Positions 33,001 to 39,000 of a stretch of DNA of 39,549 nt are shown here, piece by piece. The stretch lies in the IMG/VR virus record IMGVR_UViG_2526164601_000042; one strand, written 5' to 3'. Numbering within the stretch: position 1 is the first letter of the stretch; each line of letters begins with the position of its first letter. This stretch comes from a virus. Lineage: Duplodnaviria > Heunggongvirae > Uroviricota > Caudoviricetes. The position numbers are program-made.

Positions 33001-36000
33001 CGGCAGAGCATTAAAAGCCTATAAAACGGACAAACACCAAATAACATTAACAATATGTTTTCAAACGAAATTTACTGTTTTTGTTATAGTAAAAATGGTA
33101 TGTAGGAATTTCGGACGCGGGTTCAACTCCCGCCAGCTCCACCACTTTTTAGTTGTTTGAAGTTCAATGAAGTCTACTAAGCCCACACAGCACAAGCTCT
33201 GCGGGCTTTTTTACGTCTATTGTCGTCCAGTGAGAATTGCTGAGAACTACGAGTTATGGCACCCTGAATGGGACCCACTAAGAAGGGTCCAAAAACCGAG
33301 GGTCCCAAAATGGCAAAAATCGCTAAGAAGCTCACTGACACTGAAATCAAAAGCACCAAGCCAGCCGATAAAGAAATCAACTTGTTTGACGGTGATGGTC
33401 TGATTCTACGAATCGCTCCTTTGGCGAAAGGAGGCAAGAAAAATTGGTATTTCAGGTATGCAGTACCAGTGAGCAAGAAAAGAACCAAAATGAGCCTTGG
33501 GACATATCCTCACCTTACCCTTGCAAGAGCCAGAGCCTTACGTGATGAATATCTCTCCTTTCTGGCAAATGGTGTTGATCCCCAAATCCATAACAACGAT
33601 AAGGCGAAGGCATTAAAGAGTGCTACTGAGCACACTCTCCAAGCCGTAGCGCGGAAATGGTTAGATGAGAAGGTAAAGACATCAGGTATCTCACAAGACC
33701 ATGCAGCAGACATCTGGCGCAGCTTAGAGAGAAATGTCTTTCCCGGTCTGGGTAATGTCCCTATCAATGAGATCCGACCTAAGCTCTTAAAACAACACCT
33801 TGATCCTATTGAGCAACGAGGCGTATTGGAAACTCTACGCCGTATCATTTCACGTCTGAATGAAATCTTCCGGTGGGCAGCTACTGAAGAACTTATTGAG
33901 TTCAACCCGGCTGACAACCTTGGTCAAAGATTCAGTAAACCAAAAAAGCAAAATATGCCTGCCCTTCCCCCAAGCGAATTGCCAAGGTTTATGGAATCTT
34001 TGACGAATGCGTCAATCCGGTTGGAAACACGTATGCTAATTGAATGGCAATTGTTGACATGGGTTCGTCCGGGTGAAGCCGTTCGCGCAAGGTGGTCTGA
34101 TATTGATACAACCAACAGCATTTGGAACATTCCTGCTGATTTCATGAAAATGAAAAAGCTTCACAAAGTTCCTTTGAGTAAAGAAGCTTTGCGCATCCTT
34201 GAATTAATGAAATCAATAAGTGGGCATAGAGAATGGGTTTTCCCCAGCATAAAAGCGCCTCTTAATCATATGCATGAACAAACAGCCAACGCAGCTATCA
34301 TCCGAATGGGGTTCGGAGGCGAGCTTGTAGCTCACGGTATGCGTTCTATTGCACGAACAGCGGCAGAGGAGTCTGGTAAATTCAGAGCTGAAGTTCTTGA
34401 GGCAGCGCTTGCCCACTCGAAAAAAGATGAAATTATCGCAGCATACAATCGTGCAGAATATCTGATAGAGCGACAGAGTTTGATGCAATGGTGGAGTGAT
34501 TACGTTCAAGCTCAAAGATCAAATGCTCTGGTAGCCTAAGTATCAGAATAGCTAATATAATCCTGAAGGTAAAGAAAATGGAAACCCTATTCAAAGTTTT
34601 TGAAAAATTTAGTTCCAGACCACTTTTTTTATTTTTTTCGGACTCTCACTTTGTGAATTTTTTCAGAAACAATCTGTTCTGATGAATCCATCAGCAGATA
34701 ACATCGCGAAATTATTCGCAGCCATGATATTAGTTGTTTTTTTACTTGGGGATTTGAATGGCTAATCTTCAAGTTCAATGTAAACCTTGAACCTCATGAT
34801 CAAGGCGATATTGGACCAACAATTGGAACGGCTACTTTAGCTGTATACTTAGTTTATGCCTTTCACTTTCTCAGTGAAAATCCTGAAGCATTAAATTTAA
34901 AGTTATTAACTAACTCTGGCTTTATATACAGCACAACTCTATTATTATTCTCATTAGAATGCATGAAGCTTAGAAGACTTAAACAAAAATAAACAACATC
35001 ATTGTGATGATAAATATAAAATAGGCATGGCGAAAAAAATCACCACGCCTAAAATATAATAATTATGGTAGCATCATTGATACATAATCCACACCAATCC
35101 TTGAGCTATACTGAGACGCTATAGCCTGATATCTTTCTGCATAACCAGTTCTCAGTTGAGATTTAAGTTTGAGTCGGACAGGAACATTTTGCACGTTGCC
35201 ATCCATATTACTTAAAAACACGGCAGAAATAATATTTTTTTCTTCGCCATCAACTGTTGTTCCATGATTCAACACCACCATATAATCAACAACAGGAAGC
35301 GTTTTATCCCCTTCGAAAATAGAGAGATATTTTCTTTGATTTTTATGCATTACATATATATATTTCGAATGTTCAGCAAATGGCAATGCTTTACTCTGAC
35401 TGGCGTTAAAAAGCTCCAGAACTTTAATGAGCCTGTGCGGACTTAATCTTACATGGTGAGGGTCGTTACCCTGAGTAGGAACCAAATCACATGCCGCAGA
35501 TACACATAAATACCATTTGTTCGACTCTGTATCAAAGAAAATAGTGCCAGTAGAAATATGACCATCTTCAAAATTCTTTGAAGACAAATTCATATTTAAA
35601 GCATGATACATTTCGTGATAAGTATCATTATTTGATGGCAGATCCATTTTTGAAGAGCAATATTGGAGCAATGCAGCAACTCCGCTGTTAGCGTATTCAT
35701 TTGAATAGCTATCAAAAACACTTTTGATAAATTCATCCAGCGTATTATTATTTTTAAGTCTTTGATAAAGCTCTTCTGATAAATTACCAAATACAAAGTC
35801 AATATTTCTACATCTAATATCAGGCGAGTCTGATTTTAATATCTCATTTAACCACGCAGCTTGACCGTAATGATCGTTAGCCAAATGATTTACAAAAGAT
35901 AAAGCCTCAGCTTCGATTGCATTCTGAATTTCAGATTTTATTAACTGATAATAAGATGGTTTCCATTCAATGAGAGAATCATTGAGAGTTTGCCAAATCC

Positions 36001-39000
36001 TATCTCCATCGTTTTCATGATCATCTTGAACCTTATGAAATAGGGAGACAAAGATATTACCACATTGAATCCATTTTACTCCGCTTTCATCACCCCGAAT
36101 GACATTGCCAGATGTGTTGCTAGAAATAATTGCATTTCTAGACACAGCATATTCTGCAATCATTTTTGCAATGAAGTTTTTATCCTTTTGATCCTCCAAC
36201 ACAGCATCATCATGTATTAATCTTTTAATTCTTCTACAAGGCTTACTGTCTTTAATATAGGCTATTATTTCATCTCTTGTGAGAGCTTTATTACCATTAT
36301 CATTTAAGTTCGGTAATACAACGTCTTCCCAATAACTTTGGACATCTTCATTATCGTAGTCAATGATCAAGCTGTTGATATCCAGAGCACCTTTGAGAGT
36401 CGATGATATCTGCATCCAAACCGTTTCTAAATTCTCTCTAGTATATATTACAATCATATTTAAATGATCGGAGTCTTTCAAATCTTGTAATAGTTTAAGT
36501 GTTTTATCAGGTGCATTATTATCAAGATGATAATCTACAATAATAAGATCTGATTTTCTAATCCGATCCACATCGAAATTAACAGAACCATTGTCAACAT
36601 CACAAATCATATTTTTAGATTGAAAAAAGCTCTCAAGAGTAGCGGCTCGTTTAGATGAGTCAATTTTGTTGTAGTCTAAATCAACTTCGTTATTCAACGC
36701 CCTGATTGATTCAGAATACGTCAGAAAATCGTCATCAATCATGACAACGGAACGAATTGCATTTTCGCAGAAAGTTTTCTGGACAAGAGAATTATAATTT
36801 GCCACTGTCATATTAGAACTCCACTCCATTGAACTGGATCACAAAATTAGCGCCATCTTTTATTAAATAGTTATCGCCTTCATCAGGTTCTGAATACCAT
36901 ATTTTATGATGTGCAACAGCAAGGTTTTCTCGACATAGATACAGACCTACCCCATGTCCATTTGCTCTTTTGCTATAAAATAGTTCAAATAGTCGCGGGA
37001 TATCATCGGTATCAATTGCCGGACCAGAATTTGCTATGATAACCAAAGAATTCACAAAACCAATCTTTATGAGCCTATTATTTGACAGACTGACCCAATA
37101 CATTGCATTGTTGATAATATTAGTAAAAACAGGATAGATCCTTGATGGTATATCTGTTATTGCGATTTGCTTAAACTCTTCACTAAATTCAATAGTTATT
37201 CGTTGCCGTTCGAAACGCTCCCCAAAGAACTTCAGGACATAATCCATGATATTTTTTCCAGTTATTCTCTGCCTGGATTGATAACCTGATATTTTCAAAG
37301 GTGATAAGAAACGTATTTGTTGAGTAAGCGATCTGTGAGCATTTAACGCCAATGAAAAACCAGGGTGTTCTTTTACAGAAGTAGGAAGAGAGTTTAGTCC
37401 TCTGGTTACCATAGAATCCATTTCTTCAAGTTCATGAGATATTATCTCAACACTAATACCTAACTGTGCAAGCGCGTTTAAACTTTTAGCTTTTTCTTCA
37501 AAATATGAGCGTTCTTCTTCAGATAATGAGAATGCTGAATCTAAGTTTATACCTTCAAATAATCTATCGAGACCTTTTATTATTGATTGATATTTGAAAG
37601 TTAGGGTATCAACTGACTCAACATATAAACTATCGAGCAAATTAAACACATTTTCAATTTGTGAATCATTATCTATTGAATCAACAACTGATATAGTTTT
37701 AGCATAATAATCACTTCGATCAACCTTTATTTCATCGGCCCATTTTTTTAAAAGAGAATGTATCTTCTCCTCTATCGTGTTATTAAACTTAGTTAGTTTA
37801 GAATTAATAATACCTTGATTTTTTTCAAGGTGATTTTTCGCTGACAATGAAGGCTCAAGTTTATTTAATTCAGAATCAAGTTTATTAATTGCTAACTTCA
37901 TTTGTAGAATATACGCAGAGAACTCATTAAATTTATCTCTGTAGTCTCTATATTTCTCTTCATACATTCCAAGTTTTGGAGGTTTGATAGGCGTTTTAAT
38001 TTCACTGCGCAACGCATCTAAGTTTGTAAGATCACTGTCTATAATTTTAAGATAGTTTAAATCTAACGAACCATCAGTTTTATCAAGCTTAGTTTTCAGC
38101 CTTTTAACAGCCTCCAAGGAAGCATCAAGAACTGGTGTCTGATTCTTCAAAGCTTCTGAAAAACTTTTTTGTGTTGATTTTCGAGCTTGTTGTTGAGCAG
38201 ATTTTCTTAACTCTTTTTCACGCTTAACTTGTTCTAAAAGCTCTTTACGGTCATCAGAACGTGAACCAAAAAATCTATCAGCAAGTTCAGTTAACAAATT
38301 AGATATAATAGTTTTCAGTTCTCTTGCAGCCTGGTTTCTTATGAATCCCTCTCTCCCCGACTTATCTTTCAGCTCTTTATTACTGGATTGAGTAATTCCA
38401 ATATAACCAAAAATCCTTCTATTAGACCAATAATATCGCCCTGCATTCCATGAACGTCTTTCTTCTATCTGGAAGAAATCATTATCTACTCGACCATAAG
38501 GTAATACTCTCAAGCTATCCCTAAAAATCATTAGTCCTGCATACTTTTTGGCCTTAAGATCAAAGTGGGAATGTTCACGTTCAGTATGTGATGTATTTTG
38601 TGAAAGGAATTCAAACGTTCCTATCTGAAGCTCAAATGGGCCGACCCCTGCGTGATCCTACCCACGTAATATGGACACAGGCCTAAGCGAGGTTCTTGTT
38701 TTCAAATTGTTCCGGACTGAGGCCGCCACACAAACTGTGCCGCCGCCACCGATTGTAATCACATTCGATATAATTAAATACCGTTGCCCGCATTATTTCC
38801 CGGCTGATAAAGTGTTCTCCATGGATACATTCCACTTTCAGCGAATGAAAGAAGCTTTCCACGCAGGCATTATCGTAGCAGCAACCTTTTGCGCTCATAC
38901 TTCCACGCAGATTATGCCGCTTCAGTTGCGCCTGATAATCTGCTGAACAGTACTGGCCTCCACGGTCCGTGTGAACGATAACGTTCCGGGGCCTCTTACG

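Follow-up and report, generated by a model that had tools for sequence, protein, structure and literature searches.

Whether a histidine kinase and a receiver protein encoded side by side in viral DNA form a working defence module is the question raised by IMG/VR virus record IMGVR_UViG_2526164601_000042, a caudoviral stretch of 39,549 nucleotides that was analysed at its full length and is called the window below. Near its right end the window carries two adjoining AT-rich open reading frames (ORFs), both on the minus strand within 35063-38652. In an earlier sequence-only reading, these had been taken for a histidine-kinase-like gene and a receiver-domain gene carried as cargo of an integrase island, possibly a phosphorelay-based defence module. 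Our analysis points to a different state of the locus. It is probably the decayed remnant of a cassette made up of a DNA methylase, a paraMORC-type histidine kinase and a receiver-effector protein, the intact form of which would provide methylation-linked defence or addiction by way of a toxin gated by phosphotransfer. By its domain matches, the window pair is placed in an already known family, described by Bellieny-Rabelo, Pretorius and Moleleki in 2021 (PMC8011034).

Profile searches agreed with most of the domain assignments made from the sequence. The first ORF (36813-38531, minus strand) encodes 572 amino acids, and its start codon is an internal methionine, Met417, of the ancestral protein. 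It contains a dimerization and histidine phosphotransfer (DHp) domain, HEF_HK (Pfam PF19191; residues 356-414; 37290-37466, minus strand), which scores 26.1 bits against a Pfam cut-off of 24.1 and holds the motif IISHELEEM; the predicted phospho-histidine at 37434-37436 (minus strand) is H366 of the remnant ORF and H782 of the intact protein. A HATPase_c catalytic domain is found at residues 462-553 (36873-37148, minus strand; Pfam E 1.8e-11, 44.9 bits) with its N, G1, F and G2 boxes, asparagine replacing aspartate in the G1 box of the window copy. The second ORF, the receiver-effector gene (35063-36811, minus strand), is intact and encodes 582 amino acids plus stop from the annotated start, the longest ORF (35063-36829) giving 588. 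The two ORFs overlap by 17 nucleotides, or are separated by 1 nucleotide if the annotated receiver start is used, and translational coupling of the pair is plausible. The second protein matches Response_reg_2 (PF19192; E 3.7e-31, 109 bits against a cut-off of 27), and its receiver domain (residues ~1-285, minus strand) contains a helical insert and the predicted phospho-acceptor Asp93 (36533-36535, minus strand). The receiver had thus been recognized correctly from the sequence alone; the unmatched domain behind it, put at ~450 amino acids, shrinks to ~300, because the insert of ~100 residues takes the receiver domain to about residue 285. These remaining ~300 residues had no match in Pfam, NCBIfam, PADLOC or PDB sequences. 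NCBIfam gave only generic histidine-kinase matches for the window proteins, all of them sub-threshold, PADLOC gave none at E <= 0.01 for both window proteins and two intact kinases, and a family profile searched against PDB sequences gave none at E <= 1. In hundreds of E. coli genomes the two proteins bear the RefSeq labels 'ATP-binding protein' and 'response regulator receiver domain'. Their AT-richness (32-34% G+C over the pair region versus ~55% in the prophage to the left), the lack of a classic DNA-binding output domain and the location on a mobile island, here an ssrA island, all stood as first read.

The kinase gene is not whole. Its frame is open for 41 further codons upstream of the ATG, up to the end of an insertion sequence (IS), IS3, at 38654, and the 5'-truncated gene (36813-38653, minus strand) comprises codons 376-988 of an ancestral paraMORC-histidine kinase. 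A search of a protein collection found homologues of 988 amino acids, 99% identical, in Salmonella, Klebsiella, Serratia and others, and these have an additional N-terminal HATPase_c_3 domain (PF13589), a MORC-like GHKL ATPase; they are soluble proteins in which a long helical stretch separates this head from the kinase part, and HATPase_c_3, HEF_HK and HATPase_c make up the dominant architecture of the family. The window was 99% identical to five intact loci over 33100-38653 (blastn), and homology to the intact islands ends precisely at 38653, the IS3 boundary, which is nucleotide 1127 of the 2967-nucleotide gene, so that 375 N-terminal kinase codons have been lost. In the intact loci, the start of the kinase gene shares 20 nucleotides with a gene for a C5 cytosine methylase (PF00145, E 9e-59), beyond which lie a relaxase and further recombinases. 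The intact cassette of the Salmonella locus L002, 99% identical to the remnant, spans 8833-14717. All of these are absent from the window, as are the HATPase_c_3 head and the native promoter region. What stands in their place is the right end of IS3 with orfB (38654-39549, minus strand), as judged from sequence and ORF, which runs off the window and has the same reading direction as the remnant; in relatives this copy is annotated 'IS3-like element IS3 family transposase' and as a pseudogene. In near-identical E. coli chromosomes, the far side of IS3 meets a 5'-truncated ygaQ-like amylase pseudogene followed by glaH-lhgO-gabDTP, and a truncated pseudogene abutting the element is the signature of an IS3-associated deletion. 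Such a deletion in an E. coli ancestor removed the methylase, the promoter region, the 375 codons and whatever else of the island lay before ygaQ; what survived was a whole receiver gene and a kinase ORF without its head. The sequence-only reading had hinted at the matter of intactness only indirectly, by suggesting that intact homologous pairs be sought.

The remnant is present at 99% identity or more in 560 of 5426 complete E. coli genomes, always on the chromosome. At megablast sensitivity, the lost methylase with the 5' kinase segment was found in none of the 5426, and the same holds for a second, intact allele that is borne by an integrative and conjugative element (ICE). In one lineage, the receiver gene is interrupted near codon 453 by a further IS3-family element; 'partial' database entries of 453 amino acids, which form a large cluster, end at that point, and draft assemblies often end there as well. 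Compared with the intact copies, the remnant shows 5 non-synonymous versus 4-8 synonymous differences in the kinase part and 2-3 versus 7-10 in the receiver gene, which are too few to judge relaxed constraint since the deletion. A promoter scan of 34500-38800 found sites no commoner than chance. The window copy has most likely lost its function, and in some lineages its decay goes on. The truncated E. coli pair, with a receiver protein 100% identical, was also met on a 5.6-kb contig labelled as a metagenome-assembled genome of Bacteroidales (DAIPZW010000118.1), which is almost certainly a mis-binned E. coli contig; it is numbered L014 among the related loci.

What the cassette looked like before the deletion can be read from its relatives. 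Homologues at 59%, 46% and 25% identity, located on a Salmonella ICE, an Acinetobacter Tn7-like element and an acidobacterial conjugative element, bring together a methylase, a kinase of ~980 amino acids and a receiver protein of ~590 amino acids, and the second E. coli/Salmonella allele on the ICE has the same trio. For a species-level scan, one genome was taken per species, giving 37 loci, and hidden Markov models built for the three proteins were run over the six-frame ORFs of these loci. Wherever the sequence reached far enough, a full-length kinase gene stood immediately upstream of the receiver gene. The search for intact homologous pairs that had been proposed yielded more than pairs, namely a conserved trio: the C5 methylase adjoins the pair in the related loci L002-L013 and in ~30 of the 37 species loci, which come from Gammaproteobacteria, Alphaproteobacteria, Acidobacteria and others, and it lies upstream in the same orientation, or downstream and convergent. 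Apart from the trio, Vsr alone recurs as a neighbour, in 14 loci; most other clusters of conserved neighbours proved to be antisense shadow ORFs inside the kinase and methylase genes. Vsr usually accompanies a C5 methylase that is active on the genome and repairs the damage caused by deamination of 5-methylcytosine, and its recurrence therefore argues that the methylase acts on the host genome. No separate nuclease gene is conserved among the related loci, which leaves the C-terminus of the receiver protein as the only candidate effector. Seen as a restriction-modification (R-M) system, the window has neither methylase nor nuclease, and the intact cassette has a methylase and no recognisable nuclease domain. 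Among the loci examined the cassette was always cargo of mobile elements, which were ICEs (with TraG and VirB4), Tn7-like elements (with TnsC/D/E) or ssrA islands. A profile search of 1.84 billion representative proteins gave 487 clusters at E <= 1e-30, and nearly all of the best 150 of these have the architecture of ~600 amino acids, together with a few shorter fragments and some longer proteins.

Two sets of relatives deserve a separate remark. In the Tn7-borne loci of Acinetobacter (L009/L010), a gene for a 71-amino-acid XRE-type helix-turn-helix (HTH) protein at 9889-10104 precedes the methylase, which is convergent with the receiver gene; the small protein recalls the controller proteins of R-M systems as well as AbrR of the Ambrosia system discussed below. 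In Salmonella Bareilly (L054, 3984-6983), an 83%-identical allele is annotated as a '572-aa ATP-binding protein', but the ORF of 999 amino acids is fully open, so that the shorter product is a start-site miscall. The idea that 572-residue proteins are a recurrent natural short isoform was rejected with this case. A gene with ScoMcrA-SBD and HNH_2 domains lies 2.8 kb downstream of the receiver gene in the same locus, HNH_2 being found near this one Salmonella allele only.

The Response_reg_2/HEF_HK pair, and PF19191 and PF19192 with it, come from the 2021 study named above; the Pectobacterium homologues had been discovered through their induction in planta. The study reported 91.6% linkage of the pair over 644 regions, an association with C5 methylases, Vsr and HNH_2, and kinship to paraMORC ATPases; an E. 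coli sequence was modelled, and no domain was found in the rest of the receiver protein (PMC8011034). The earlier suggestion that the window pair may be a distinct variant does not hold, as the pair, its linkage, its methylase association and its paraMORC kinship had all been published. The association with C5 methylase and Vsr was reproduced among the present loci. The 'group 1' head and the nearby C5 methylase of that study are missing from the window copy through the IS3 deletion. Headless 'group 2' kinases were counted there as natural variants, whereas the window kinase is a physical truncation and the Salmonella Bareilly one a miscall; some of the published 'group 2' architectures may therefore be annotation artefacts or truncations. 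As regards paraMORC proteins themselves, GHKL ATPases of this kind in R-M operons were described by Iyer, Abhiman and Aravind in 2008 (PMC2292703). The present kinases resemble them in the GHKL head, the RDxxRVxPYG region, the cytosine methylase and Vsr alongside and the location on mobile DNA. However, paraMORC1-5 pair with helicases, restriction-endonuclease-fold nucleases or TIR, and neither a histidine-kinase fusion nor a receiver partner was reported for them (PMC2292703).

The nearest system with experimental support is Ambrosia of Pseudomonas, which consists of the XRE protein AbrR, the N6 methylase AbrA, the HATPase kinase AbrB, the receiver AbrC and the HNH protein AbrD (bioRxiv 10.1101/2025.09.30.679545). 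Its phage defence was lost in AbrB N40A, a mutant of the GHKL head, and in AbrC D60A, and the supplement gives AbrB as a protein of 747 amino acids with HATPase_c_3 and HATPase_c, with partial sequences. On comparison by BLASTP, the first 399 residues of AbrB were found to align collinearly, in two segments, with an intact cassette kinase, P0003 (AbrB 12-124 with P0003 8-125, E 6e-11; AbrB 320-395 with P0003 411-479, E 4e-6); the window keeps the second of these segments only. Both cassettes thus unite a DNA methylase, a kinase with two GHKL modules and a receiver protein. They differ in that Ambrosia has an N6 adenine methylase, an XRE protein and a separate HNH nuclease, whereas the intact cassette has a C5 methylase and no conserved HNH or XRE gene. 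AbrC, moreover, is a plain receiver of 209 amino acids, whereas the present receiver protein has ~585, with an output region of its own of ~300, and alignment of AbrC to the family by hhalign gave a probability of 0.1%, with no relation beyond the receiver fold.

Residue conservation was analysed in 35 kinases and 39 receiver proteins. In the GHKL head of the kinases, E32, N36, D39, DxGxG and GEKGIGRLS are invariant; the dipeptide H782-E783 is invariant in 35 of 35, as are N887, N890 and the GxGVGL G2 box, and the G1 position is aspartate or asparagine. In the receiver proteins, D26, D27, D93, T124 and K260, the classic receiver set, are invariant. The canonical two-component residues are therefore present on both sides, the DHp histidine and the N, G1 and G2 boxes on one and the acidic pair, aspartate, threonine and lysine on the other, and His-to-Asp phosphotransfer between the two proteins is predicted. 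In the C-terminal half of the receiver protein N406, G422 and C441 are invariant, the last lying in the motif SAACD in the window and SPACD in distant members, and S293, E294, Q296 and N297 (the SEIQN motif) as well as R571, G573 and D575 are nearly invariant (in at least 90%); a C-terminal tail, RIGVD(F/Y), is also conserved.

An AlphaFold2 model of the receiver protein had a mean predicted local distance difference test score (pLDDT) of 84. In the model, the insert of ~100 residues separates helix 4 from strand 5 of the receiver fold, which ends near residue 285; residues 286-582 modelled again alone gave a pLDDT of 85. From the models and the alignment, this part was divided into a helical middle domain with the SEIQN motif (residues 286-410; 35582-35956, minus strand), for which no family or fold match was found, and a beta-rich C-terminal domain (residues 411-569; 35105-35581, minus strand), the putative effector. 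The predicted model of the latter resembles the fold of the MazF/Kid/CcdB superfamily, which is characterised by an SH3-like barrel. The study that defined the family had found no domain in this region, and the toxin-like fold predicted for the output domain is the one new item of the present analysis. It should be read as a lead and not as membership, because sequence profiles give no support: none of the 39 family members matched the PemK or CcdB models of Pfam, and Foldseek with the full model against the PDB returned weak receiver/flavodoxin matches and nothing for the rest of the protein. MazF, Kid and CcdB toxins also differ from this domain in having no profile similarity to it; no antitoxin gene was found here, and the domain follows a receiver and a helical domain in one polypeptide, so that control would be by phosphorylation and not by an antitoxin.

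Taken together, these features can be arranged into a mechanism for the intact cassette. The methylase would mark the host genome, and the MORC-like head would clamp DNA, driven by ATP, and signal DNA that is unmarked or foreign. In response to this signal the kinase would phosphorylate itself at His782 and pass the phosphoryl group on to Asp93 of the receiver protein, and phosphorylation would release the toxin-like C-terminal domain, which may arrest the infected cell or attack the invader. The outcome would be defence, or addiction of the host to the mobile element. We infer the sensing logic, the phosphotransfer and the toxin activity alike. That methylase and sensor head were lost together in a single deletion is as expected if loss of the methylase alone were harmful, though it is one event only.

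Several observations weigh against this account. Both remnant ORFs are open in most E. coli carriers and their changes are mostly synonymous, so that some residual function is possible, and IS3, which reads in the same direction, could supply transcription. The MazF/CcdB resemblance is confined to the fold of a predicted model, and hhalign of the C-terminal domain against MazF, Kid, EndoA, ChpB and CcdB gave a probability below 1%; the domain could instead bind DNA or protein. No PADLOC model matches either protein or the intact kinase, and the searchable literature holds no experimental test of any Response_reg_2/HEF_HK member. The Ambrosia authors prefer a model in which the receiver protein controls transcription to one in which it activates an effector directly, and the methylase of that system gives phage DNA no protection (10.1101/2025.09.30.679545).

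A bolder claim can be put forward tentatively, with rather more doubt than confidence. The intact cassette might constitute a distinct class of methylation-guided immunity or addiction, in which the fusion of a MORC clamp to a kinase converts the epigenetic state of DNA into a phosphoryl signal that releases a receiver-fused toxin of MazF/CcdB fold. As a corollary, the E. coli remnant, carried by ~10% of complete genomes, could persist as a headless kinase and toxin pair transcribed from IS3.

Among the alternatives, the one that survives best is that the intact cassette is mainly an addiction module: when the element is lost, methylation would be diluted, the sensor would fire and the receiver-toxin would kill the segregant, as in classical R-M systems. 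The constant location on ICEs, Tn7-like elements or integrative islands, the pairing of a methylase with an effector of predicted toxin fold, and the loss of methylase and sensor head in one deletion, which would be a safe way to lose such a module, all agree with this. However, defence and addiction are not mutually exclusive and the same mechanism fits both, and Ambrosia, with its homologous kinase, protects against phages. We regard a mainly addictive role as possible but rather unlikely.

It is decidedly unlikely that the cassette is a regulatory two-component system in which the receiver C-terminus binds DNA and activates the methylase or island genes when the kinase senses stress, in line with the Ambrosia model. 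In favour of such a role, the Ambrosia authors report infection-induced expression and a helix-turn-helix of the winged type (wHTH) in AbrC, the Pectobacterium homologues are induced in planta, and an XRE-type HTH gene stands beside the methylase in the Acinetobacter loci. Yet the C-terminal 300 residues yielded neither an HTH or wHTH nor any other family or fold that binds DNA, the 209-residue AbrC is unrelated beyond the receiver fold, and the conserved cassette has no separate effector gene to regulate.

Less credit still can be given to the view that the truncated E. coli pair is functional, with a headless and possibly constitutive kinase made from Met417 on IS3 read-through and kept by selection together with the receiver-effector. 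Neither frame is interrupted in the window or in most of the 560 carriers, the ratios of non-synonymous to synonymous change (pN/pS) against the intact copies are 0.05-0.34, and AGGA stands 3 nucleotides before the ATG at 38531, towards which IS3 orfB reads. The divergence is below 1%, however, so that open frames and low pN/pS mostly reflect what went before the deletion. The remnant has lost its native promoter region, its methylase and its sensor head, promoter-like sites are no commoner than chance, a second IS interrupts the receiver gene of one lineage at the point where draft assemblies often end, and the neighbouring 138-amino-acid ORF is frameshifted. This makes a selected function of the remnant very improbable.

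That the pair is a variant of Detocs, the defensive two-component system that the sequence-only reading had likened it to, is scarcely credible: a soluble kinase and a receiver fused to a non-DNA-binding domain do lie in a mobile island, but none of the three features of DtcA, DtcB and DtcC is present, PADLOC matched neither protein nor the intact kinase, the sensor is a MORC-like ATPase and the cassette includes a methylase. In Detocs, DtcA is a kinase with tetratricopeptide repeats (TPR), DtcB a standalone buffer receiver and DtcC a receiver fused to PNP in 80% of cases (Rousset et al. 2023; bioRxiv 10.1101/2023.01.24.525353). No TPR match was found in the remnant or in intact P0003, the head of which is HATPase_c_3, no third, standalone receiver ORF was found in the window or in 40 related loci, and neither PNP nor any other Pfam or PADLOC effector family was found in the C-terminus of the receiver protein. 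The two are alike in concept, in that a phosphorelay would run, for defence, from a soluble kinase to a receiver joined to an effector that arrests the cell; the present cassette differs by its methylase and MORC-like sensor, and no sequence relationship was detected. Of the defence module first proposed, then, the idea of a conflict system in which a phosphorelay drives a non-transcriptional effector fared well, in view of the mobile cargo, the C5 methylase with or without Vsr and the homology to AbrB, and the likeness to Detocs did not.

Two other candidates were dropped, namely MADS, described as a different methylation-associated operon of 8 genes without a receiver protein, and the VcSduA/paraMORC3 Shedu system, in which GHKL is fused to a DUF4263 nuclease with neither kinase nor receiver. 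The DefensePredictor paper pictures an unvalidated system of HATPase and REC, the identity of which with the present pair could not be told.

The window locus, as a dead-end remnant of a published family, matters little in itself. Its truncated state needs to be recognised, so that it is counted neither as a defence system nor as a natural 'short' kinase architecture. The conserved unit is one of three genes, including the methylase and without a separate nuclease, and its kinase has a homologue in Ambrosia, the only system of such a kind that has been validated. The MazF/CcdB-type appearance of the predicted receiver output offers a concrete and testable effector hypothesis for a family of ~490 sequence clusters. 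If a MORC-like clamp does drive a histidine kinase, bacterial epigenetic sensing would be linked to phosphorelay signalling, and this would also bear on signalling by MORC ATPases.

The setting of the remnant can be traced from the left end of the window, where smpB and ssrA occupy 1-1060. A 45-bp direct repeat of the ssrA 3' end lies at 33100-33144 (plus strand) and is identical in 45 of 45 positions to 1016-1060 (blastn-short); it is the att boundary between a 186/P2-like prophage and the remnant island. The island integrase (33310-34539, plus strand; Arm-DNA-bind_3, Phage_int_M and Phage_integrase in Pfam; 409 amino acids as annotated in RefSeq relatives) also adjoins ssrA in the intact islands L002-L006 and in E. 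coli SCU-152, and integrase and repeat together mark the setting of the pair as an ssrA island. The same remnant is found in E. coli SCU-152, where it lies directly at ssrA and the prophage is absent. The two genes had been said to follow the integrase; being on the minus strand, they are convergent with it and do not form one transcription unit. Between them lie the remains of a hypothetical ORF of 138 amino acids (34578-34994, plus strand), which is frameshifted and has multiple stops on translation in the window; it is intact in L001 and L002, and every intact ssrA island has it beside the cassette, as do many E. coli genomes. A terminator-like hairpin (35022-35051, minus strand) with a 12-bp stem and a T-run begins 12 nucleotides past the stop of the receiver gene.

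The prophage between ssrA and its repeat (1061-33099) looks complete. It includes a 186-type CI repressor (30114-30746), an integrase (30749-31765), terminase and tail genes, a DinI/Tum-like gene (24315-24620, minus strand) and a replication protein (24901-27315). An ORF of 160 amino acids (1184-1666, plus strand) just inside the ssrA-proximal end had no Pfam match and a weak partial match to the PADLOC candidate family PDC-S48 (E 1.8e-7). At the other end, 10 nucleotides past the stop of the prophage integrase, an ORF of 401 amino acids (31775-32980, plus strand) lies in a patch of 35% G+C and matched nothing in Pfam, NCBIfam or PADLOC; it resembles cargo carried by the phage between int and att, and may serve in defence or exclusion. 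Finally, an Acyl_transf_3 acyltransferase of 377 amino acids (9139-10272, plus strand), located in an island of 36% G+C beside the tail-fibre assembly gene of the prophage, is probably a moron that modifies the O-antigen or cell surface.

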